64,000 bases of DNA from an uncultured Acidobacteriota bacterium. Its GTDB lineage: Bacteria; Acidobacteriota; Thermoanaerobaculia; Multivoradales; UBA5704. A program made the translations under genes and the position numbers. Shown here piece by piece: positions 3,173-38,400 of this stretch. The DNA lies in assembly GCA_963757335.1 (NCBI GenBank), contig CAVWRJ010000021.1, forward strand, positions 256,853 to 320,852, read 5' to 3'. The stretch's first letter is position 1; each line of letters begins with the position of its first letter. A model generated the notes under the pieces. That model did not search any database and was not told the DNA's origin. It saw only the letters and a program-made list of their open reading frames with translations.

Positions 3173-3649
3173 ATGAGAAGCCAATTTTTCTGCCGCACCC
3201 TCTTTTTGGTGGCCGTGACCTTCTCGTGCGCAAGGCTGGGTGCTGCTTTGACGCAGCGCACCGCGGCCTCCGATCGTCAGGCGCTGGTCGCGCTCGAGAC
3301 CGAGTGGGCCGTCGCGCACGACGCCGCGACCCTCGACCGCATCCTCGCACCCGACTTCATCCACCCAGTATCCGCGGGGGTTTTCCTGACCAAGGCGGAG
3401 CATATCGACTGGGTGACGAAGCATCTTCCGTCGGCGGATCGCAAGCTGCGCTTCGACCGCTTGGACGTTCGGCTGTACGGCGATGTCGGGATCGTGACCG
3501 GCATGGTCGTGGCGAGCGATGGAGGAGGCAAGGAGTTGGATCGGAGTGTGTTCACCGACGTCTTCGCCTATCGCGAGGGGCGGTGGGAGGCGGTCAATGC
3601 TCAGGAGAACCGGGTGGAGGGGCGGGGGCGAAGAGAAGGTCCTATCTGA
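3173..3649 (+). CDS. SnoaL-like/DUF4440 (NTF2 fold) protein with signal peptide
   Basis: Hydrophobic N-terminal signal followed by an NTF2-like fold pattern (WAVAHDAATLDRILAPDF...YGDVGIVTG...YREGRWE). Confidence 0.5.
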   Translation: MRSQFFCRTLFLVAVTFSCARLGAALTQRTAASDRQALVALETEWAVAHDAATLDRILAPDFIHPVSAGVFLTKAEHIDWVTKHLPSADRKLRFDRLDVRLYGDVGIVTGMVVASDGGGKELDRSVFTDVFAYREGRWEAVNAQENRVEGRGRREGPI

Positions 3650-5486
3650 CGATTTCCAGATGGGGCAAGCCCTCCACCGGAGAAAAATCGGAAACCCGGG
3701 TTGGGTAGAGGATGAGTCTTTGCAGAGAGCTGAGTCCTGCGAGAGGCGCGAGGTCTGAGACTTCGGTTCCGGAGAGGTAGAGCTGTTGCAGGGAGCTGAG
3801 ACCTGCGAGAGGCGCGAGGTCTGAGACCTCGGTTCCGGAGAGGTAGAGCTGTTGCAGGGAGCTGAGTCCTGCGAGAGGCGTGAGATCTGAGACTTGACGG
3901 GCTAAGAAGAGGTAGAGCTGTTGCAGTGAGGTGAGTCTTGCGAGAGGCGTAAGGTCTGAGACCTCGGTTTCGGCGAGGTAGAGCTGTTGCAGGGAGGTGA
4001 GTCCTGCGAGAGGCGCGAGGTCTGAGACCTGGGTTCCGGAGAGGTCGAGCTGTTGCAGGGAGGTGAGTCCTGCGAGAGGCGCGAGGTCTGAGACCTGAGT
4101 TCCGGCGAGGTCGAGCTGTTGCAGGGAGGTGAGTCCTGCGAGAGGCGCGAGGTCTGAGACCTCGGTTCTGGAGAGGTCGAGCTGTCGCAGGGAGGTGAGT
4201 CCTGCGAGAGGCGCGAGGTCTGAGACCTGGGTAAAGGAGATGCTGAGCTGTTGCAGGGAGGTGAGTCCTGCGAGAGGCGCGAGGTCGGAGACCCCGGTTC
4301 CGGAGAGGTCGAGCTGTTGCAGGGAGCTGAGTCCTGCGAGAGGCGTGAGATCGAAGATCTGCGACCTTATCCCGTCATGCAGGTATCCACCCATCAAAAG
4401 CCTTCTCTGTACTTCGGGTAGGATCAGCGGATTAAATGCCTGCGCCAGCTCCGAGAGTACCGTGACGCGCTTTTCAGAAGAATACCCCTCTAAGGCTAAG
4501 CGCGCCTGAGGCGTTCCGATCAGACGCAGAGCGCGGACGCACGCGGCTGCCTGCCGAGCAGAGAGACCTTTGCTGAGTTGCAGATAAGGCACCATGACAT
4601 CGCCACCAGTCGCAAGGTCTTCAGCATCTCCCATGCTGGTCGGTGGGAAGAGTTCCTGCGCGAGTCCCTCGATCCGCTGTTCGAGATCTGGTCGCAGGAA
4701 GAGGGCCGCAGCGCGGCAGCGAAGGGCGAGGAGTTGCAGAGTACGGCGAGAGGTTGGCGCATTTCCGAGAACGGGTCGTCGCCCTTTCCCCATAGGTGCA
4801 CGATCCTCTGTCGCGAGGAGCCGTTCGACGATATCGCTCGCGAAGCCCTGCTTCTTCGTCGTCACCGCGAACAGGATGACCCTCTGCCACGTCGGATCGA
4901 GCGCCTGCTTAGCCAGCCGGCCCGCATCGCCGGCTTCTGCGAATTTCTCGGCACCAAGGAATTCCTTGAAGGTGTTGTGGATGAAATCAAGCGAGCCAGG
5001 TCGGGCCTCCCGCAGCATGCCGCTGCGCTCGACTAAGCTGCCCAGGACCTCTCTCGATTCCTCTTCGGCATGCCCGGGGAACTGCCGGAGGACCTCAGCA
5101 ACCTTCAGGCGGGCACGTTCGTAGGCCACCGAAGACTCCTCGTTCTCGACCATGTAGTACGCCAACTCCCGCACGATCGCCCTCTTCTGCTCGTAGCTCA
5201 AGCACCGGTAGCTCTCCGGAAATTGACTGAGGTCGAGCCCGCTCTCGCGCTCGCGGCGGTGGAGCAGCATGTGGCAGAGGGCTTCGCACAGCTCGGCTTG
5301 GCTCTCCGGCAGCTTCCGGTGCCGGTCGCGATGGAGGGCGCAGATCATGGCGCAGAGGAGCGGGTTTGTCGCCAGCCGTGCGATGGGCGGGTTCGCGGGC
5401 AGTTGTAGTTTGAGCCTCTTCGGCAAGCTGGCCGAAGTCCTCCGCCTTCTTCCCGATCCGGCGGAGCTCTTCGGCAACGGCTTCAT
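3642..5486 (-). CDS. NLR-like STAND NTPase, C-terminal fragment (NACHT helical module plus leucine-rich repeats); same gene as 5095..6147 and 6041..6784, separated by apparent frameshifts
   Basis: NPLLCAMICAL motif of the post-NACHT helical region, followed by about 10 tandem 22-aa LRR units LSGTEVSDLAPLAGLSSLQQLY. Confidence 0.7.
   Translation of the reverse strand: MKPLPKSSAGSGRRRRTSASLPKRLKLQLPANPPIARLATNPLLCAMICALHRDRHRKLPESQAELCEALCHMLLHRRERESGLDLSQFPESYRCLSYEQKRAIVRELAYYMVENEESSVAYERARLKVAEVLRQFPGHAEEESREVLGSLVERSGMLREARPGSLDFIHNTFKEFLGAEKFAEAGDAGRLAKQALDPTWQRVILFAVTTKKQGFASDIVERLLATEDRAPMGKGRRPVLGNAPTSRRTLQLLALRCRAAALFLRPDLEQRIEGLAQELFPPTSMGDAEDLATGGDVMVPYLQLSKGLSARQAAACVRALRLIGTPQARLALEGYSSEKRVTVLSELAQAFNPLILPEVQRRLLMGGYLHDGIRSQIFDLTPLAGLSSLQQLDLSGTGVSDLAPLAGLTSLQQLSISFTQVSDLAPLAGLTSLRQLDLSRTEVSDLAPLAGLTSLQQLDLAGTQVSDLAPLAGLTSLQQLDLSGTQVSDLAPLAGLTSLQQLYLAETEVSDLTPLARLTSLQQLYLFLARQVSDLTPLAGLSSLQQLYLSGTEVSDLAPLAGLSSLQQLYLSGTEVSDLAPLAGLSSLQRLILYPTRVSDFSPVEGLPHLEIVR
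3712..4345 (-). repeat. about 9.5 near-identical 66-bp tandem repeats encoding the LRR units
   Basis: Direct reading: gagctgttgcagggagctgagtcctgcgagaggcgcgaggtctgagacctcggttccggagaggta recurs with 0-4 substitutions per unit. Confidence 0.9.
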
Positions 5487-6147
5487 GCCACTTTTCGATA
5501 AACCGGGCGCGGTCCAAACCGGACAAGGGATTGACCCGTGCGTCGCGAAAGCCTTCGCTGGCCAACCAGCCCGACGGCACGCCCAAAGGGCGCGTGCTCA
5601 CCAGGAGGTAGTTTCCCGGATAGGCGCGGACGATGGCCGAGATCTCGTTGCCGACCGTAGTGCGGTGGGCATTGGGTACTTCATCTACACCGTCGAAGAG
5701 CAGGAGAGCGCGGCCCGCCCGCAAGACCGAGAGCACCCACTCTGCTGGCGGAGTGCCGATCTCCTGGGCGATGAGTTCGGGGAAGTCGTCAGGCTTCGGG
5801 AGTCTCCCGGCCTGGCAGTCGCGGAGACGGATCAGGAACGGGACACACGAGCGCCAGCTGTGTTCGGCCGTCTCCGATAGGGAGGATCGCCGGTTCTTTC
5901 CTTGAGCCGCCTGGATCGCGATCCAGCGGAACAGTGTGCTCTTGCCGCTTCCGGCCTCGCCGCGAAGCACCAGCCGGCCGGCTCCTGGCGCAAGGCTGTC
6001 CAGCACGGACTCTACGGGTGCGGATTCTCCCTCGCTTTCCTCAGTGTCCTGAGGACCGGTTTCCAACTGAAGCGAGATGGAGGCGACCGTCAGGGCTCTT
6101 GCTCGAATCCGGCTGAATGTCGACACCGAAGAGCTCAAGAAAATCAA
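5095..6147 (-). CDS. NLR-like STAND NTPase, NACHT P-loop fragment
   Basis: Walker A GEAGSGKSTL, Walker B LLLFDGVDEV, then winged-helix-like region. Frame breaks relative to the flanking fragments at about 6041-6147 and 5400-5486. Confidence 0.7.
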   Translation of the reverse strand: MIFLSSSVSTFSRIRARALTVASISLQLETGPQDTEESEGESAPVESVLDSLAPGAGRLVLRGEAGSGKSTLFRWIAIQAAQGKNRRSSLSETAEHSWRSCVPFLIRLRDCQAGRLPKPDDFPELIAQEIGTPPAEWVLSVLRAGRALLLFDGVDEVPNAHRTTVGNEISAIVRAYPGNYLLVSTRPLGVPSGWLASEGFRDARVNPLSGLDRARFIEKWHEAVAEELRRIGKKAEDFGQLAEEAQTTTAREPAHRTAGDKPAPLRHDLRPPSRPAPEAAGEPSRAVRSPLPHAAPPPRARERARPQSISGELPVLELRAEEGDRAGVGVLHGRERGVFGGLRTCPPEGC

Positions 6148-6784
6148 GGTTTCGGATAACCTCCAGCCGGTAGTCGGACTCGTACTTCTGATTCCCGGGA
6201 TCGCGCTCCTGCGTCGCCACCCAGGCTTCGATGTGCTCGACCCGGCGGGCGGTCTGTTCCACGATATCGCCGAGATGGCTGAGGCGCTTCAAGCTCTCGG
6301 CCACGGCAGCCTTCTCGAAGCGGGGGAGCTGGGCCGCGATTTCGACCAAGTAGCGCACGGCTTCCGCCAGCACTCGGTCGTAGAACTCCTCTTCCGCGGC
6401 CGAGAACTGACCCTGGGGAAGGGGGCGCGCGGCGCGTAGCTCGGCAAGAAGCTTTGTCGGATCGAGATCCTTCCCGACGAGAACCTCCGGCGAGATCTTG
6501 CCGTCGAGGGTCGCCTCGACCTCGGCCGTCACGGCCGCGACAACGATACCGCCATGGTTGTCGGCGTCCTCAAAAAGAGGGAGGAGCTGGGCGGCGATGC
6601 GTTCGCCGAGCCCCTCGAAGACTCGGGAGGCGTCACGCCGGGCAAAGAGGCTCTCGATCTGACCCTTACCGATGTCGGTCAGATCGTCGCCGAACACCTC
6701 GCCTGGCCGGCCGAGGTAGGTCTTGAACAGGAACTTGGCGAGGCGCGTCCCTAACTTGACGAGCAGGGTCTCTGAGAAAGCCAC
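6041..6784 (-). CDS. NLR-like STAND NTPase, N-terminal all-alpha domain of unknown type plus pre-NACHT linker
   Basis: Putative GTG start at 6784 preceded by AGGGGGA. C-terminal YRLEVIRNLDFLELFGVDIQ matches the conserved pre-Walker-A segment of NACHT proteins. The ORF track extends to 7258 through the 42-bp repeats, which are probably non-coding. Confidence 0.5.
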   Translation of the reverse strand: MAFSETLLVKLGTRLAKFLFKTYLGRPGEVFGDDLTDIGKGQIESLFARRDASRVFEGLGERIAAQLLPLFEDADNHGGIVVAAVTAEVEATLDGKISPEVLVGKDLDPTKLLAELRAARPLPQGQFSAAEEEFYDRVLAEAVRYLVEIAAQLPRFEKAAVAESLKRLSHLGDIVEQTARRVEHIEAWVATQERDPGNQKYESDYRLEVIRNLDFLELFGVDIQPDSSKSPDGRLHLASVGNRSSGH

Positions 6785-7044
6785 GAATCCCCCTGTACGA
6801 TGACGGGTGTATGCGACTGCGAGCGAGCAGCCCCGCCGTTCCACGATGCCGGACTTGTCAGCCACATTATGTACTGAGATCACTGGAGCGCAGCGAAGGA
6901 CTCGTCGGGGAAGCGCCGCACCCCCGCCCAGATCCTTCGCGGTGCTCAGGATGACGGTAGGAACGGTCGGCGCGAACCACACCGGGATCAGAATCCATCC
7001 GTTGAACACACTACGGTAGCGTTTGGGCGCTGAGCGCCAGGCGG

Positions 7045-7214
7045 CGGTCGCTGTCCCTCGGCTGGCGACGATCGCGAGCTTAGCGGGAATCGCTGCCCTT
7101 CGGCTGGCGACGACCGCGAGCTTAGGGGCAGTCGCTGCCCCTCGGCTGGCGATGATCGTGAGCTTAGGGGGAGTCGCTGCCCTTTGGTTGGCGATGACCG
7201 TGAGCTTAACCCAA
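7045..7214. repeat. 42-bp tandem repeat array, left part (4 units); each unit has a C(UUCG)G-type hairpin
   Basis: Units tcgctgcccttcggctggcgacgaccgcgagcttaggggcag; continues on the far side of the IS at 9214-9345. Confidence 0.85.
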
Positions 7215-7273
7215 CTTCCACGCTTTGCGGCATAAAGTATTGAGCCATAAGGATCCACAGTTGACTTTCGTCA

Positions 7274-8350
7274 CTATTCTGGGTTGGGCAGCCAGGTTTT
7301 GACGGGGGCCATGACCTCGTGGGGAATGCCGAGGGTGTCGTAGATGAGCTGATGCTGCTTCTCCGGATTCGTGCCTTTCCGGATCCGGAGAAGTTGACCA
7401 CATGGCGTCGGCAGCACTGCGGTGACCACCTGGTGGGTGGAGAGCTGCTGGCGCAAGGTCGCCCACGAGGTGTGTATCTTTTTCCGCAGAAAGCTGGTCT
7501 CGATCGAGATCAAGAGGTGATAGGCCAACACGCAGAGAAAGATGTGGGTCTGCACTCGGTTCTGGAGCTGATGGAAGATCGGGCGTTCCCGGAGCGGACT
7601 TTTGAGATCGCGAAACGCATTCTCGACTCGGGTCAATAGAATGTAGATCCGCCAAGCCTCTTCGGTGTCGAGATCCTTACGATCCGTTTTAAGCAGATAG
7701 GCGCCATCCATGCGAAGAGCCCTGGCCTTGGCCTCGGTCTCTTCTTGCCAGATCAGCTTCCAGGGGCCAGGATCGAAGCTGAGCCGGTAATACCGGGCCA
7801 CACGAGGATAGCGCTCCTTCAGGCGGCCGATGGCCTCATAGACTTGCGCTTCCCCGATCCGTTTCTTGGCAACTCGCGCCTGGAGACGATCCAGGTCAGC
7901 CAGGAGGCGCTTCTCCTGTTTTTCGCGAATCGCCCGATCCTTGGCTTGGCGCCCCTCGCTTCGACACAGAATGTAGAGATGATCGGCGGTCTCGAGCCGT
8001 TTGACCCAAACCTGGGACTTTTTCTGCGCCGGGTTGTCGGCGAGGGCTCTCGCAGGACTTCCTGCCAGCCCTGCTCTTGCTCGAGATCGTCGAGCCATTG
8101 CAGGCGCTCCGATTGACGGCAGGCAACCACGTAGTGATGGCCGCAGGCTTGAATCTGCTGGAGATTTTCGTCGAAGGCCATGCCACGGTCCACGATCACC
8201 GTGCCTCCACCCTTGCGCCCAGTACGTTGCTCCAGGATCTGCAGCATCTCGTCGACCGACGATCGGTCTTGGCGATTGCCATCGAAGACCTCGTGGGCCT
8301 TGGGAAAGCCTTCCCGGTCGAGCACTAGGCCGATGACGACCTGTTTGCAA
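7274..8350 (-). CDS. IS1634-family transposase, C-terminal portion; frame differs by a 1-nt indel in a C homopolymer near 8040
   Basis: Sequence after about 8030 (VWVKRLETADHLYILCRSEGRQAKDRAIRE...) continues the transposase. The junction gagccctcgccgacaac needs a 1-nt change to restore the frame. Confidence 0.7.
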   Translation of the reverse strand: MQTGRHRPSARPGRLSQGPRGLRWQSPRPIVGRRDAADPGATYWAQGWRHGDRGPWHGLRRKSPADSSLRPSLRGCLPSIGAPAMARRSRARAGLAGSPARALADNPAQKKSQVWVKRLETADHLYILCRSEGRQAKDRAIREKQEKRLLADLDRLQARVAKKRIGEAQVYEAIGRLKERYPRVARYYRLSFDPGPWKLIWQEETEAKARALRMDGAYLLKTDRKDLDTEEAWRIYILLTRVENAFRDLKSPLRERPIFHQLQNRVQTHIFLCVLAYHLLISIETSFLRKKIHTSWATLRQQLSTHQVVTAVLPTPCGQLLRIRKGTNPEKQHQLIYDTLGIPHEVMAPVKTWLPNPE

Positions 8351-9117
8351 TCAGGTCGCTGATCGCGTGAATAGCCGCGTCGGGCTTGAGGATTGCTCTC
8401 GCATTTGCCCTCGAAGTAGGTCGAGGTCAGATCGTAAAGGTAATAGCTGTCATCCAGATTGAAAAGACTTTTCTCCCGCTTCGCCAGAGCCGCCTCGATC
8501 TTGCCTCGGTTCGGGTGCAGGCGATCCAGATTGCGATAGAGGGCTTCGTCAGTGAGCTCCCGCAGGTCCACCCCCAAAATATCGCCCAGCGCCGTGCGCC
8601 GGACCCAATCCGGCATTGCATGTTCCGAGCACGGAGCCACCAGGCGATTCAAAACCATGACCTCGGTGAGACGCCGAGCCTTGGGCGAAAGGCCCACCTC
8701 AAGCAGAGTGTCGTCGATTCCCAGACGCAGCCACATTTGGTGGCCCACATGGACAGGTCCCGCCTCGCGCGCCTCTTCCTGGCGCAACTGATCCGTGTGC
8801 ACGGACACGAGATCCTGGCGGTTGGTCGCGGTACGGACACGGTTCACAACCTCGGTGACCAACGGGGCCTGAGCCCTCAGCGAGGTTTGCCCCGCAAGCG
8901 CCGCCTCGACTTGGCCGATCAGGCCCGGCCACTTGCTCTTGGGCCCCGGCGACAGGGGACCCTGTGAGCACAGGGTCCGGAGTCGCTGCCCCTGAGGAGT
9001 GGTCACCGTCTCCACTACCAGGTAGTTGGTGTAGGTCTTGTCCTTGTACCGCTTGACGGTCTTGCGGATGAACACAAGGCTTCTATACCAGAAACTCGAA
9101 GGCCCTGGTTTCGTCAC
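7819..9117 (-). CDS. IS1634-family transposase, N-terminal portion
   Basis: KDKTYTNYLVVETV...QRLRTL N-terminus, YDLTSTYFEG (first DDE Asp region), and RGYSRDQRPDCKQVVIGLVLD are typical of IS1634 transposases. Confidence 0.75.
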   Translation of the reverse strand: MTKPGPSSFWYRSLVFIRKTVKRYKDKTYTNYLVVETVTTPQGQRLRTLCSQGPLSPGPKSKWPGLIGQVEAALAGQTSLRAQAPLVTEVVNRVRTATNRQDLVSVHTDQLRQEEAREAGPVHVGHQMWLRLGIDDTLLEVGLSPKARRLTEVMVLNRLVAPCSEHAMPDWVRRTALGDILGVDLRELTDEALYRNLDRLHPNRGKIEAALAKREKSLFNLDDSYYLYDLTSTYFEGKCESNPQARRGYSRDQRPDCKQVVIGLVLDREGFPKAHEVFDGNRQDRSSVDEMLQILEQRTGRKGGGTVIVDRGMAFDENLQQIQACGHHYVVACRQSERLQWLDDLEQEQGWQEVLREPSPTTRRRKSPRFGSNGSRPPIISTFCVEARGAKPRIGRFAKNRRSASWLTWIVSRRELPRNGSGKRKSMRPSAA

Positions 9118-9213
9118 TATTTCCGTGAATCGGCGATCCCGCCTCTCGAAGAATCAACAACTTACAGCCACGAAGCCACCGAAATCGGCCTCCTCGGAAC
9201 CGGAGACTGTGGA

Positions 9214-9345
9214 AGTTGGGTTAAGGGCAGTCGCTGCCCTTCGGCTGGGGACGACCGCGAGCTTAAGGGCAGTCGCTGCCCCTCGGACGGCGACTACCGC
9301 GAGCTTAGGGGGAGTCGCTGCCCTTCGGGTTCGGACGCCCAGGCG
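9214..9345. repeat. 42-bp tandem repeat array, right part (about 3 units)
   Basis: Same unit as 7045-7214; starts immediately after the right-hand TTAA of the IS. Confidence 0.85.
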
Positions 9346-9626
9346 GCTGCACTGGTCGGGCGGTGTGAAGGTTTCGGTGAGTCGTGAGCAGCGCGCGGAG
9401 GTCATCCGGCGCCGCACGGGACGCGTGAAGAGGGCGGCTAGATGAGGGAGGTTTTACTACCGCGAGCTTCCCCCCTCCTTTCCTCCCCCTGACCCAACCG
9501 CCTCCCGCCCAGGGGGGAGAGACGCGAGATCGAGGCGTTCGTGGGCTTGGCCAAGCGGCTGGAAGTGCGAGTGGGCCGGCGCCAGTTCTCCAAGGAAGTG
9601 CAGGGCTTGCTGGTCTCCGGGGGGTT

Positions 9627-9860
9627 CTAGAATTTCGGCAGCAACCCGGACTGGACGAGGTCACGCTGCTCGACGGACATCGTCGGGATCTCCTGGCCGA
9701 GTTGCTGGTACGCCAATACTATCTCGTGGAGGGCGTCCCGGAGCATCGCCCGGCACTCTTCGATCGTGCCCCCCTCCGTGACCACCTCGGGCCATTCGAG
9801 GAGCTGGCCTATGTACCCGGAATCGATCTTCGCGTACCTCGCCGTATAGCTCTGGAGCAC
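9627..9860 (-). CDS. HicB-like (UPF0150) antitoxin-domain protein, no HicA partner found
   Basis: YTARYAKIDSGYIGQLLEWPEVVTEGGTIEECRAMLRDAL fits the HicB N-terminal fold pattern. No HicA-like ORF in any frame of the flanks. Confidence 0.4.
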   Translation of the reverse strand: MLQSYTARYAKIDSGYIGQLLEWPEVVTEGGTIEECRAMLRDALHEIVLAYQQLGQEIPTMSVEQRDLVQSGLLPKF

Positions 9861-9912: not shown

Positions 9913-11341
9913 TCAGTACGCGTTCAGCCGCATCGCATGCCGGAAGGTCATCCAGAGGATCTTGAAGTCGAGCCCCAGCGACCAGTTCTCGATGTAGTAG
10001 AGGTCGTACTGGATCCGCTTCTTGATCGAGGTGTTGCCGCGCCAGCCGTGGACCTGGGCCCAGCCGGTGATGCCGGCTTTCACTCGGTGGCGGAGCATGT
10101 ACTGGGGGATCTTGTGCTTGAACTCGCGGACGAAGGTCGGGCGCTCGGGGCGGGGACCGACGATCGACATGTCGCCGACCAGGACGTTCCAGATCTGCGG
10201 CAGCTCGTCGAAGCTCCAGCGGCGGAGGAAGCTTCCCACCCGGGTGCGGCGGGGATCGTCCTTGACCGCCCAGACCGGGCCGGAGCTCGCTTCGGCGTCG
10301 ATCCGCATGGAGCGGAACTTCAGGATCATGAAGCTCTGGCCGTCGAGCCCCATCCGCTCCTGGCGGTAGAAGATCGGCCCGCGATCCTCGAACCAGATGG
10401 CGAAGGCGGCGAAAGGGAAGAAGGGGAGGAGCACGAGGTGCGCGGCGAGGGCGATCGCGATGTCCATCCCCCGCTTCACGAGGCTGTTCCAGCCCTGGAG
10501 GGGGACCTGCGAGAGGTTGATGACCGGCGTGCCGTCCAGATCCTCCAGGGTGGCTTTGAGCGTCGCGTACTGGAGGATGTCCGGCACCAGCTTGGTCTCG
10601 ACGCATTCGCGGGCCATCAGCTGCAGCATCGAGAGGGTCTTCTTGTGCGCCTCGATAGGGAGGGCCATGTAGACCTGGTCGATCCGCGTCTCCGCCAGGA
10701 CCTCCTCGGCCTGCTTGAGAGTCCCGAGGACCGGGACGCCGCAGACGAGGGTGCCGGCCTTGCCGGGGTCGTCGTCGAGGAAGCCCACGACGTCGAAGCC
10801 TGAGACCGCGATGGGCGAGGATCTTCTGGGTGATCTCGCGGCCGAGGGTGCCGGCGCCGATCACCAGGATGCGCTGGAGGTTGAGTCCCAGGAGCCGCGA
10901 GCGGCGGGCGGCGAAGCGCAGGACCATGCGGATCGCGCCGACGGAGAGGAAGTCGGCGAGGGCGAAGATCCCCAGGAAGGCGCGGCTGTAGGTGAAGTAC
11001 TCGGTGCTCCCGGGATAGACCGGCGGCCGGTACCAGGCGATGACCACCGAGAGGAGGACGGTCGCCAAGAGCACCGCCACGAAGAGGGTAAGGATCTCGT
11101 CGACCCGGCTTCGCCCCCTGCGGCTCTGGTAGAGCCCATGAAAGTAGAAGACGACCGGCCACAAAACGAGGACGATCGGCACCAGTCTTAAGTAGGGGGT
11201 GAACTCCGGGACGTTCTTGGTGACCGGGATGATCGCCATCTCGAAACGCAGGAGCCAGGCGCCTAAAAAGGCGGCGAGGGTTCCCAGGAGATCTCCGGCC
11301 AGGTAGAGGCCGGCCGTCATGCGATGGCGTTGGCGGATCAC
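9913..11341 (-). CDS. undecaprenyl-phosphate sugar phosphotransferase (WbaP/EpsB-like bacterial sugar transferase); 1-nt frameshift near 10803
   Basis: N-terminal TM helices and VIGAGTLGREI Rossmann segment in one frame. The FLDDDPGK...catalytic domain (PQIWNVLVGDMSIVGPRPERP) is in a second frame. Removing one a in ctcaggcttc restores GLGFDVVGFLDDDP. Confidence 0.85.
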
Positions 11342-12500: not shown

Positions 12501-13685
12501 TCAGGGGGCGTCCTCGCGGGGGCGCACCTGGATCGACTGCGAGCCGGTTCCGGAGAGATCGGGGGCCTCTCCCAGGGCGGCGCGGTAGACGTCCAGGGTG
12601 CGCCGGGCCGTCCTCTCCCAGCGGAAGTCCTCGGCCCGCCTCGTCCCCAGCTTGGCGAGGGCCGTCCGGTGCTCGGGGTCGGCCATGCAGCGGGCGATGG
12701 CCTTCGCCATGCCGTCGACGTCGAGCGGGTCGACGAGATGCGCGTAGCCCTCGGCGATCTCTTTGAGCGCCGAGGTGTTCGAGGTGATCACCGCCACTCC
12801 GGAGGCCATGGCCTCGATCACCGGCAGGCCGAACCCCTCGTAGAGGGTCGGATAGAGGAAGAGCTCCGCCCCCTGGTAGATGGCGGGGAGGGCGTCGTCG
12901 GGGACATGGCCGATCTGCCGTACCCGGTCTTCGAGGCCGAGGTAGAGGGCCCGCTGGCGGACCTTCTCGTCCCCCCCTCCTTGCCGCCGACGCAGAGGAG
13001 CGGCGCGTCGAACTGGGCGATGCGGCGGGCCCGGGCGTAGGCCTGGACGACGTTGTCGAGGTTCTTGTGCGGCTTGGGGTTGCCGACGAAGAGGAGGTAG
13101 GGCCGGCGGATACCGTGCTCGGCGAGCCGGCGCTCGATCTCGTCCTCGGGCAGGCGCTGGCGGAAGCGGTCCTCGACCCCGTTGTAGATCACCTGGATCT
13201 TCTTGCCGTCGACCTCGAAGTACTCCATGAGGTCGGCCTTGGTGTTCTGCGACACGGCGATGACGCGGTCGCCGCGCGACAGGCCCCGCCGGATCATCCC
13301 CTGGGCGTAGAAGAAGGCGAGGCCGCTCGGCAGGAACTCCGGGTAGAGGAGGTGGATGATGTCGTGGATCGTCACCACCACCCGCCCCTTGATGAACCCG
13401 GGGAGGACGTAGTGGGTCGAGTGGTAGAGGTCTAAGTCCAGGCGGTAGAGCTGCCAGGAGAGGGCGAGGATCTCGCGGAGCGAGTAGACCGGCGAGCTCT
13501 CGATGGCGACCTTGAAGTTCTCCGGCAGCTCCGGCAGGAACTCCCGGTCGGCCGGCCGGACGAGCAGCACGTAGCGGTTCTCGCGGTCGAGCGCGGTCAG
13601 CGAGCGGACGAGGTTCCGGACGTAGGTGCCGATCCCGAAGTCCTGGATCTTCCGCGCGTCCAAGCCGATCGTGTAGGGCAAAGGG
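12501..13685 (-). CDS. glycosyltransferase family 4; frameshift between the N-terminal half (frame of ORF 12818..15082) and C-terminal half (frame of ORF 12501..13760)
   Basis: N-terminal IGLDARKIQDFGIGTY. C-terminal LYPTLYEGFGLPVIEAMASGVAVITSNTSALKEIAEGYAHLVDPLDVD...FRWERTARRTLDVYRAAL. Start codon uncertain. Confidence 0.75.
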   Translation of the reverse strand, partial: PFALHDRLGRAEDPGLRDRHLRPEPRPLADRARPREPLRAARPAGRPGVPAGAAGELQGRHRELAGLLAPRDPRPLLAALPPGLRPLPLDPLRPPRVHQGAGGGDDPRHHPPPLPGVPAERPRLLLRPGDDPAGPVARRPRHRRVAEHQGRPHGVLRGRRQEDPGDLQRGRGPLPPAPARGRDRAPARRARYPPALPPLRRQPQAAQEPRQRRPGLRPGPPHRPVRRAAPLRRRQGGGDEKVRQRALYLGLEDRVRQIGHVPDDALPAIYQGAELFLYPTLYEGFGLPVIEAMASGVAVITSNTSALKEIAEGYAHLVDPLDVDGMAKAIARCMADPEHRTALAKLGTRRAEDFRWERTARRTLDVYRAALGEAPDLSGTGSQSIQVRPREDAP

Positions 13686-13691
13686 TCTCCT

Positions 13692-13767
13692 GGCTCCGTT
13701 GGATTCCGAGGACGGGCGACTGGCTGCGCGGAGCGCCCGAAGGTCGCCCGCAGGATCCAACGGAGCC
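13692..13767 (-). repeat. dispersed palindromic element (copy 1 of 4): conserved core ...TGCGGGCG-CTCCTTCGGGCGCTTCGCGC-GCCAGTCGCCCGTCCTCGG... flanked by inverted arms
   Basis: Reverse complement of 13692-13767 aligns with the copies at 16117-16211, 37464-37544 and 43684-43774. Confidence 0.8.
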
Positions 13768-13788
13768 GTGTCCTCCTGGGACGACGAG

Positions 13789-14934
13789 CTAGTCTAGCGC
13801 CTCGGCGAAGACCTCCGCCATCTCCCGCGCCGCCTCTTCCCAGCGGAAGCGGGCGGCGCGGAGGACGCCGCGCCGGGAGAGGTCGGCGGCGCGGGCCGGG
13901 TCGTCGAGGATCTTCTTCAAGCGCGGCGGCCAGGCCGTCGGCGTCGTGGGGGGCGACCTGGAGCGCGGCGTCCCCCACCACCTCGGGCAGGCTCGACGCG
14001 CTGGAGACGACGGTCGGCACCCCGCAGGCGAGGGCTTCTAACGGCGGCAGGCCGAAGCCTTCGTAGAGCGAAGGGTAGGCGAAGGCCCGCGCCCCCTGGA
14101 AGAGCCGGACGAGGCGGTCGTCGTCGACCCGGCCGAGGGAGCGGACGCCGCCGTTCGAGAAGTTCGAGAGCCGCTCGATCCGGGCACGGAGGGCATCGTT
14201 GTGCCAGCCGGCGCCGCCGGCGAGGAGGAGCGGCGGGGTCGCCGGGTCTTCGCGGCGGAGCGCCTCCCAGGCGGAGAGGAGGACCGAGACGTTCTTCCGC
14301 GGCTCTAGGCTCCCGAGATAGAGGATGTAGCCCTCCGGGGTCCCGAGCTCCCGGCGGATCGCCGCCACCTCCTCCGGAGAGCCCGGAGCGAAGACCGGGT
14401 CCACCCCCTCGTAGACCACCCGCACCCGGGAGGCGGAGGCCGGGAAGTGGAAGGCGAGGTCGGCCGCGGTCGCCTGGGAGACGGCGACGATCCGCCGCGC
14501 CCGGTCGAGCGAACGTTCGAGAAAGGGGAGGATGCTCAAGCGGACCTTGACCGTGTGAGTCTCGGGATAGAGGAGGGTCGTCAGGTCGTGGATGGTGACG
14601 ACCGAAGGGAGCGCCCGCACCTTGGCGGCGAGGGGAAGGGTCATCAGGGGCGACCAGAAGAGGTCAACGTCCCCCCGCGCCAGCCGCCGCGGCAGCTGCA
14701 CCTGCTGCCAGATCACCCCCAGTGGCGCCGCTTGCACCTCGATCGCCACCCCCGCCGCCTCCAGCTCCTCTGCTCCTCGGGGAGGCTTGTGGCAGAGCCC
14801 GAGAAGCCGCGGGCCATTCGCCTGCTTGGCGAGAGCGAGGAGGAGATTCCGGGTATAGACGGAGATCCCGGTCGGTTCCGGCACCAGGGCGCGGAGGTCG
14901 ACGGCGAGGGTGGGCCGGGAGGCGCTCGGCATAG
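13789..14934 (-). CDS. glycosyltransferase family 4; frameshift near 13925
   Basis: IHDLTTLLYPE...YPSLYEGFGLPPLEALACGVPTVVSSASSLPEVVGDAALQV. The true C-terminus ...RFRWEEAAREMAEVFAEALD is in a second frame. Confidence 0.8.
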
Positions 14935-15261
14935 GGCGCGTCGGCTCGGCTACGAGAGTGCCGCTTCGAGGTCTTCCGGGGTGAGAATCAGCAGAGTGGC
15001 TTCGCGCAATACATTCGTGCCGAAGAGAGCTTTCAAGAATGCTTCCGCTCAAGGTAGCGGTAGTAATCCCATTCGTCCACATCCTTCAAGGAACCCAGAA
15101 GCTCCCGAGTCTTAGGTGGCAGCTCTTCGGATTCTGTCTCGGAAGGGTGCGCCCAGCGCTTGCCGAAACGGATCAGATCCTCGTCCAGCCGCAATGTGAG
15201 CTTGGATGACATGGGCTTCCTCCTCCAGACGTACCGATCTTAAAGGATTGTACGGCGGAGG

Positions 15262-31390: not shown

Positions 31391-31700
31391 TTAGAGACGC
31401 GAGCTCCCCATTTCGGACGCTACACTCCTCTTTTCAGACGCGAAACACCTCTTTTCGGACGCAGAAATGAACGCTTCGGCGTCCAGAGTGAGCTTTTTAG
31501 CGTCCGAAAGAAGCTCTCCAGCGTCCGGAAAGCTCTTTTCGGAGTCCGGAAGATTCATTTCTGCGTCCGAAGTCCTCCTTTCGGCGTCCAGAATGAGCAT
31601 TTCTGAGTCCGAAGTCCTCTTTTCCACGTCCGAAATGAGCATTTATGCGTCCAGAAAGATCTCGTAGCGTCCAGAAGACGTGACTTTAGCGTCCGAAGCC
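31391..31700. repeat. array of about 15 degenerate 20-23 bp repeats with a conserved 9-bp core TTCGGACGC: 3 units in one orientation, then about 11 in the inverse orientation (GCGTCCGAA)
   Basis: Direct reading of the sequence: units such as tcggacgcagaaatgaacgct, then agcgtccgaaagaagctctcc, tgcgtccgaagtcctccttt and so on. Confidence 0.85.
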
Positions 31701-38269: not shown

Positions 38270-38400
38270 TGTCGTAGGGGCACCCCCCTGTGGGTGCCCT
38301 GGGAGGGCGGGCGGCCACGGGGGGGCCGCCCCTACGCTCCAAGCCCTGGGAGGGAGGGCGGCCACGGGGGGCCGCCCCTACGCTGACGAGGCCCTGGCGC
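38270..38400. repeat. two tandem direct repeats of about 45 bp, each with a GC-rich hairpin (ggcggccac-ggggggcc-gcc)
   Basis: gccctgggagggcgggcggccacgggggggccgcccctacgct occurs twice in succession. Confidence 0.8.

Follow-up and report, generated by a model that had tools for sequence, protein, structure and literature searches.

The stretch analysed here, referred to as the window, is 64 kb of DNA from a soil Acidobacteriota bacterium, and all coordinates without a locus prefix are positions within it. It contains a 42-bp tandem repeat array that is interrupted by a 2,011-bp element (window 7043-9335). This element is an insertion sequence (IS) of the IS1634 family, and the array stands upstream of an NLR-type gene with NNH1, NACHT and LRR domains (Table 1). 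Taken together, the evidence makes it probable that the locus records a routine, recent IS1634-family insertion into a chromosomal, non-coding array of palindromic units, similar in kind to repetitive extragenic palindromes (REPs) and bacterial interspersed mosaic elements (BIMEs).

Table 1. Coordinates of the interrupted array, the inserted element, the neighbouring genes and the small genes that lie beside related arrays. Positions refer to the window unless a locus is given; TSD, target-site duplication; TRF, Tandem Repeats Finder.
Feature	Position	Strand	Details	Basis
Left (NLR-proximal) array part	7043..7209	.	4 units, the first degenerate	TRF, register, orthology to L006:9174-9482
TTAA, left TSD copy	7206..7209	.	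also within array unit 4	flank comparison with other IS copies
IS1634-family IS	7210..9220	-	2,011 bp; inverted ends CCCAACTTCCAC at 7210-7221 and 9209-9220	
Subterminal 13-nt motif, right-end copy	7266..7278	-	AATAGTGACGAAA in IS orientation; overlaps transposase stop codon	IS positions 1943-1955
Transposase gene	7274..9078	-	probable GTG start 9078, stop 7274-7276, 1-nt deletion at 8036/8037	
Subterminal 13-nt motif, left-end copy	9109..9121	-	AATAGTGACGAAA; in 5' leader, ~30 nt before transposase start	IS positions 100-112
TTAA, right TSD copy	9221..9224	.		
Right (distal) array part	9225..9335	.	2 full units and truncated terminal unit	TRF, register
NLR-type gene (NNH1, NACHT, LRR)	3642..6784	-	downstream of array; three frames, at least 2 frameshifts	Pfam, translations
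UPF0150 (HicB-like) small gene	9627..9860	-	nearest same-strand gene upstream of array	Pfam PF21748; called as gene in L006
Small coiled-coil protein genes	L021:2620-2991, L092:1843-2196, L096:88-477, L108:3-131, L109:3713-4033, L117:5457-5822, L125:909-1271			

Tandem Repeats Finder reports 42-bp arrays on either side of the IS, at 7047-7208 (3.9 copies) and at 9221-9328 (2.6 copies). A 23-nt core of the unit, allowing up to three mismatches, has six matches in the 64-kb window, all of them at this array, where 0.01 would be expected by chance. Removal in silico of the IS together with one TTAA restores an exact 42-bp register of six full units and a truncated seventh. The initial annotation had described a 7-unit array that was continuous before the insertion; the repeat array is real and its continuity is borne out by the restored register and by an uninterrupted array in a relative, and only the count has to be changed. 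Its coordinates were one base low, and the rest of its description of the anatomy was accurate. It had further placed the insertion exactly at a unit boundary, but such a boundary is a choice of phase, and the TTAA sits in an arm of the palindrome. Because every unit of the array contains a TTAA or TTAG that fits the YTAR target of the IS, the supposed boundary has no special meaning. A stray partial unit (ACTACCGCGAGCTT) is also present at 9456-9469.

A close relative documents the state before insertion. Using the N-terminus of the NLR protein as a query, a protein search led through a 95% identical protein to the ENA contig L006, which is syntenic with the window and 95-98% identical to it in the flanks. 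Here the array is uninterrupted (7.4 copies, seven full units; L006:9174-9482), is bordered by the same UPF0150 gene and the start of the NLR gene, and contains no IS. This is an empty-site allele of the kind that the initial annotation had proposed looking for, at the same place, and since the relative carries the array without the IS, the repeats are host DNA and the insertion is recent. That the repeats might be part of the IS or generated by it, which had been raised as a way for the host origin to fail, was considered and is refuted by the same allele; its probability is practically nil. Five further copies of the IS also have no such repeats at their flanks, and the GC content of the array (67.5%) is that of the host (window 67.8%), unlike that of the IS (59.4%). 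A search with the neighbouring sugar transferase assigns both the window locus and L006 to the Acidobacteriota, class Thermoanaerobaculia.

The identity of the inserted element is well founded. Two overlapping minus-strand open reading frames (ORFs; 7819-9117 and 7274-8350) match NF033559, the NCBIfam IS1634 equivalog, with 179.3 and 130.4 bits against a cut-off of 100, which agrees with the family first proposed. Repair of a single base joins them into a transposase of 600 aa that matches intact 600-aa metagenome proteins at 98% identity along 100% of its length; there are thousands of relatives, and NCBI labels the intact 600-aa ones IS1634 family transposase. Other copies of the IS can be aligned end to end at 98.7% (L001), 94.7% (L002) and 87% (L003-L005) nucleotide identity. 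All five share the termini of the window copy, which are perfect 12-bp inverted repeats; the initial annotation had named differing termini as the sign of mis-assigned ends, and none were seen. No second copy was found within the 64-kb window. The flanks of other copies are CTAG/CTAG, CTAA/CTAA and TTAG/CTAG (4 bp each), which indicates that the IS duplicates 4 bp of the form YTAR and that the TTAA duplication recognised earlier is an ordinary instance.

Two details of the element deserve mention. Compared with three other copies, the frameshift corresponds to a missing C that turns GACC into GAC (plus strand, 8036/8037). The initial annotation had spoken of an indel in a C homopolymer; it is indeed a 1-nt indel, placed in a CC dinucleotide and not in a CCC run. 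Several neighbouring genes are also frameshifted, and the deletion may therefore be an assembly error. The 13-bp direct repeat reported just inside both ends is real as well, and it is kept in three other copies: at both ends it is invariant in all four copies compared, down to 87% identity, and adjoining bases vary.

The repeat unit itself consists of a 39-nt imperfect palindrome and a 3-nt linker (TCG), with a conserved hairpin GGGCAG-TCR-CTGCCC. In the predicted folds CTGCCCYT pairs with ARGGGCAG, GGCT pairs with AGCT, GCG pairs with CGC, and ACGAC forms the loop. A stem closed by a C(UUCG)G tetraloop, as suggested at the outset, does not agree with these folds, in which TTCG falls in a stem arm. 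The hairpin that spans the junction between units, GGGCAG-TCG-CTGCCC, uses the same complementary positions as the fold within a unit. Each period of a tandem palindrome contains two centres of symmetry, so hairpins within and between units are indistinguishable.

Folding statistics argue that this structure has been kept. The L006 array folds far more stably than shuffled sequences on both strands (z -6.1 and -9.5), and in 21 of 23 sub-family units the pairing of the interior exceeds that of a shuffled interior (mean z -1.76). When a 17-pair structure is laid over 24 distinct consensus units, 79.9% of the cells are paired, compared with 71.8 +/- 1.3% in shuffles (0/500) and 35-50% in controls where the structure was slid along the unit; the covariation score for the same units is 0.285 versus 0.164 in shuffles (0/500). 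Several pairs of the palindrome alternate between A:U, G:C and U:A among sub-families. As the sequences are inter-related, these figures are supportive and not formal probabilities; together they show that the palindrome is maintained through compensatory change between sub-families. The core stem has one-sided variants only and so contributes no covariation evidence. Among the covariance models of Rfam 15 no family was found on the arrays, the only hits being sub-threshold chance matches to microRNA hairpins.

Arrays of this kind are not confined to the window. A degenerate 33-nt pattern of the unit was matched neither among the GTDB species representatives nor in JGI metagenomes. A looser metagenome scan, for two core hairpins (GGGCAG-N3-CTGCCC) 15-45 nt apart, returned 40 soil-metagenome stretches, nearly all of them 42-bp arrays of 2.5-9.4 copies and a few with a 41-bp period; the same pattern had no match in viral contigs. 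Among metagenome-assembled genomes (MAGs), locus L021 (Holophagales) carries 8.6 units of 42 bp with GGGCAGTCRCTGCCCTTCG, and locus L008 has two core hairpins spaced 42 bp. One 72-kb contig holds two arrays, and a single unit type was found at no fewer than six loci with unrelated flanks. The interiors of the units diverge widely among sub-families, with a central CGAYGAC usually kept (GCGACGACCGC in the window array). In the library searched, no paper was found on the core sequence or on tandem repeats in Thermoanaerobaculia, and the arrays are apparently an undescribed family in soil Acidobacteriota, with members in Thermoanaerobaculia and Holophagales MAGs. On one array-bearing metagenome contig, an Acido-Lenti-1 RNA (Rfam RF01687; L102:330-375, minus strand) scores 49.3 bits against a gathering score of 37, which is consistent with an acidobacterial origin.

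The genomic context of the family was read from gene calls made with a crude ORF filter based on GC content at third codon positions (GC3). In all loci examined the arrays lie between ORFs, and the flanking genes may be convergent, tandem or divergent. The central motif is co-oriented with the flanking genes at seven loci and opposite at five. In eleven cases the array begins no more than 25 bp from a stop codon, and downstream gene starts are mostly 75-500 bp away. Among the neighbouring genes are those for ParE, Uma2, Mrr, an HTH_66 protein, an nSTAND1 NTPase, a GNAT, a BlaI-type repressor and a weak PIN match; the content is of the accessory type, and no one partner is found throughout.

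These observations are why we read the arrays as REP/BIME-like: they are extragenic, GC-rich and palindromic, regularly spaced, dispersed and often 3' of genes. A non-coding, REP-like structured repeat had also been the preferred interpretation at first, and it fits the evidence. No REP-associated tyrosine transposase (RAYT) was identified with the arrays, neither the window nor the loci having been searched systematically for Y1/HUH enzymes. Several points weigh against it. The invariance of the core hairpin across the metagenome loci is partly circular, being imposed by the search pattern. The 64-kb window holds one array of this type, and the dispersal is read mostly from many contigs of one metagenome. 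The window array lies ~300 bp from the nearest upstream stop codon and is not adjacent to it. A phased array of protein-binding sites would be equally consistent with the strict 42-bp period, which corresponds to four helical turns, and with a 15-bp palindrome that does not vary. Finally, a function for the array is something that we only infer.

Each unit is organised about an invariant GGGCAG-N3-CTGCCC hairpin, and CGAYGAC marks its second centre of symmetry. In transcripts, or in DNA when single-stranded, the units could fold into GC-rich hairpins. Such hairpins may serve as 3'-end, insulating or mRNA-stabilising structures, or they may be tolerated selfish repeats. Arrays would expand and contract via slippage or unequal exchange. 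The IS entered the TTAA in the arm of unit 4, as every unit offers a TTAA or TTAG; it did not seek the hairpin, since its other copies occupy ordinary YTAR sites. The insertion has left four units beside the NLR gene and has pushed the other units, and all that lies upstream of them, 2 kb further off. The transposase and the NLR gene are co-directional, so that read-through could reach the latter.

A different view holds that the array is translated as a 14-aa repeat, whether in a separate small protein or fused to the N-terminus of the NLR protein. The unit length is divisible by three, four of the six unit frames are open, and all differences between units in L006 are synonymous in one minus-strand frame (EGQRLPLSSRSSPA six times). 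Nearly all of them are also synonymous in the frame of the other strand whose third positions coincide with those of this one, and the TAG inside unit 6 of the window allele interrupts the 'synonymous' frame. In both alleles that frame lacks any ATG, GTG or TTG from its upstream stop up to the array. Variable sites at the window locus lean to one codon phase (9/15 and 7/11), but the bias is not significant after correction (p ~0.09-0.12) and disappears over 29 family arrays (129:113:104). Units of 41 bp occur in some relatives, and arrays are found in either orientation relative to neighbouring genes. A search with all four open array frames, concatenated, against 5.8 billion protein sequences found no match. 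The coding repeat was therefore rejected for want of a start codon, protein matches and family-wide codon periodicity, and because of the 41-bp variants; we regard it as highly improbable.

The same data dispose of the earlier statement that the ORF track reads through the array. This is an artefact, four of six unit frames having no stops, and in L006 the frame continuous with the NLR gene is closed by a stop codon after the array and ahead of the NLR start, which also counts against the coding reading. Three 'spanning ORFs' over arrays are likewise artefacts of open frames; those in L091 and L122 are homologous only via the translated repeats.

The main live alternative is a phased array of protein-binding sites, in which a dimeric protein would bind GGGCAG-N3-CTGCCC cooperatively every 42 bp in the manner of an operator or of a centromere such as sopC, which adjoins sopB on the F plasmid. 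It has the merit of explaining why the period is kept while the interiors of the units diverge. The occurrence of arrays in either orientation also suits it, as do variants of the core stem that display no strand-specific wobble preference (G:T 20 versus A:C 15). Moreover, a candidate protein exists. At seven to eight independent array loci, about a quarter, the 3' end of a gene for a ~120-aa coiled-coil protein with a basic C-terminal tail and the N-terminus MPKxALADT lies 8-111 bp from the array (Table 1). Its copies are 35-74% identical (alignment A2), and it has no match in Pfam, NCBIfam, PHROGs or PDB.

Against protein binding speak the dispersal of the arrays over many unrelated loci and the existence of 41-bp variants. 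The small protein is absent from the window and from L006, no ParA-like partner accompanies it, and the genes upstream of it, read by eye, vary between loci. The compensatory changes span the whole 39-nt palindrome, far past a 15-bp site. We consider a binding array unlikely, though by no means negligible. A more specific version, that the arrays are cis-sites of an undescribed chromosomal nucleoprotein system to which the ~120-aa protein binds cooperatively, unlike passive REP-like hairpins, is speculative and rather improbable. Should a protein prove to bind the arrays, or should they be linked to the small protein encoded upstream, they would point to a new piece of chromosome biology.

It is also conceivable that the array serves the NLR gene as a dedicated cis-regulatory 5' element, for instance a structured leader or a promoter spacer subject to phase variation, and that the IS insertion was a regulatory event for an active defence gene. 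The likely start of the gene is GTG 6784 (minus strand), which is preceded by AGGGGGA and followed nine residues later by the beginning of the Pfam NNH1 match. The array thus lies ~263 bp upstream of the gene and not inside it, in keeping with its first placement in the 5' region. This distance, the change in copy number from seven full units in L006 to six in the window, and the direction of the transposase toward the gene speak for such an element. On the other hand, the same kind of array stands beside unrelated genes at dozens of loci, more often at 3' ends. A scan for sigma-70 promoters between the array and the NLR gene found no match, and terminator-like sites occur at chance level.

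The state of the gene itself adds to the case against such regulation. Its domains fall in three different frames (NNH1 in ORF 6041-7258, NACHT in 5095-6147, LRR in 3642-5486), so that it is frameshifted at least twice in the window (at about 6041-6147 and 5095-5486), and in L006 it is truncated and frameshifted, its LRR-encoding part (window 3629-5021 versus L006:11517-12107) being missing there. Between the two alleles 8% of the bases of the NLR region differ, with 16 indel events, whereas the flanking genes differ by ~2%, a fourfold difference in rate. Its GC content is 62.8%, compared with 67.8% for the window. The gene looks decayed or mis-assembled; it appears to have been acquired and to be decaying, and the faster divergence and the deletion argue for decay in both lineages. 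It is probably not functional, and a dedicated regulatory role of the array is accordingly very unlikely. As the gene looks decayed, the insertion was probably without consequence for a working defence gene; any effect that the IS may have on it we infer. PADLOC did not classify the NLR pieces, and exact look-ups of the window glycosyltransferase, the UPF0150 protein and a 100%-identical N-terminal NLR fragment (P0121) returned no record.

Other genes of the locus are broken as well. Upstream of the array, the NLR strand carries the UPF0150/HicB-like gene and a polysaccharide gene cluster. An extra T at 10801, not present in L006, throws the sugar transferase out of frame after ~178 residues, and two glycosyltransferases are fused and frameshifted at 12501-15082. 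In L006, the G6PD gene is split. Frameshifts are thus dense in ~12 kb of the window (10801, 12501-15082, 5095-6147 and 8036/8037), which reflects either error-prone long-read assembly or local gene decay. The contigs bear names of the 'contig_N' type and have related 'MFD' MAGs, which hints at long-read assembly, so some of the frameshifts may be assembly errors. Between the array and the UPF0150 gene, a short open segment on the plus strand (9480-9629), ending in RREIEAFVGLAKRLEVRVGRRQFSKEVQGLLVSGGF and a stop codon, is kept in L006. The segment and that gene converge on TTCTAGAA, which they share, and the segment may be what is left of a gene.

Other repeats were encountered along the way. 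In a related MAG, an unrelated 42-bp array of 7.4 copies with a 21-bp sub-period (GGTCAYCGCSGCRCTGYACRC; L009:4993-5301) directly follows the same sugar-transferase gene, and downstream of this gene the gene content differs among L006, L007, L008 and L009. The spot after the sugar-transferase gene is a variable junction that has repeatedly hosted 42-bp arrays. Elsewhere in the window, a different intergenic tandem array (31396-31700) has a 21-bp period, a 42-bp super-period, ~14 copies of a unit containing GCGTCCGRAA, and small hairpins, and it resembles an array of iterons or operators. At 38296-38384 a GC-rich 47-bp direct repeat (1.9 copies, 95% match) contains the palindrome GGCGGCCACGGGGGGCCGCC.

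The family offers a searchable definition, GGGCAG-N3-CTGCCC every 42 bp inside a 39-nt palindrome, for a REP/BIME-like class in the Acidobacteriota, a dominant and poorly studied soil phylum for which we found no such element described. The arrays can confound gene calling, as four open frames give rise to spurious ORFs. They mark variable regions, and their copy number differs between strains.

The insertion itself is a routine event, and the element can be placed among known ones. Its termini, CCC...GGG beside a 4-bp TTAA/YTAR duplication, are reminiscent of piggyBac and IS5-type targets. Members of the IS1634 family are 1.5-2 kb long, end in C-----YT and generate 5-6 bp AT-rich target duplications (PMC2266710). 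The present IS agrees with the family in its single transposase gene, which scores above the cut-off of the family model, and in its ends, which fit C-----YT (CCCAACTT). At 2,011 bp it is just over the upper end of the size range (PMC2266710). It differs in duplicating 4 bp of the form YTAR, a variation in a secondary trait and not in the transposase, and additionally carries the conserved 13-nt subterminal direct repeat.

For the arrays, several tandem repeat systems invite comparison. The sopC centromere of the F plasmid consists of 12 x 43 bp with a short inverted repeat per unit and lies directly downstream of sopB. A period of ~42-43 bp, one short palindrome per unit and, in a quarter of the loci, a position directly after a small gene are shared with it. 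The present arrays, however, are chromosomal and occur at many loci, no ParA/ParB homologues were found, and the palindrome spans the whole unit. The pneumococcal BOX element has tandem 45-nt boxB units with flanking boxA and boxC, and mycobacterial MIRU-VNTR loci contain small ORFs coupled to flanking genes. Common to these and the present arrays are intergenic tandem units of ~40-50 bp, the potential for secondary structure and a copy number that varies between strains. Sequences and hosts are unrelated, and neither boxA/boxC modules nor coupled small ORFs were seen in the arrays described here.

Closer parallels are found among REPs. A class of CGTC-tagged REPs likewise has no dedicated transposase known (PMC3733652). 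In many sub-families the present arrays also have CGTC next to a palindrome, inside the central motif (GAYGAC reads GTCRTC on the other strand). Families of this class have 8-9 bp stems that start with A:T pairs, loops of 4-5 nt and a CCA tail, and mostly form head-to-head dimers (PMC3733652); the arrays match them in none of position, stem, loop, tail or dimer arrangement, and we treat the similarity as a resemblance only. Classical REPs and BIMEs are extragenic GC-rich palindromes, regularly spaced, dispersed and frequently 3' of genes (PMC2817692, PMC3333891, PMC3733652). Insertion sequences are known to target them (PMC1525189), whereas the IS studied here targets YTAR and not the hairpin itself. 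Head-to-tail REP dimers are reported to be absent or rare (PMC3733652), while the present arrays run head to tail for up to ~9 units at a nearly fixed 42-bp period. They also have no conserved terminal GTAG tag, and their host phylum is the Acidobacteriota. Formally, a tandem palindromic unit is equivalent to the arms of alternating orientation with two linkers that make up BIME-2. With the REPs and BIMEs of Enterobacteria and Pseudomonas the arrays share imperfect GC-rich palindromes of 20-40 nt that are extragenic, dispersed, regularly clustered and often located 3' of coding regions.

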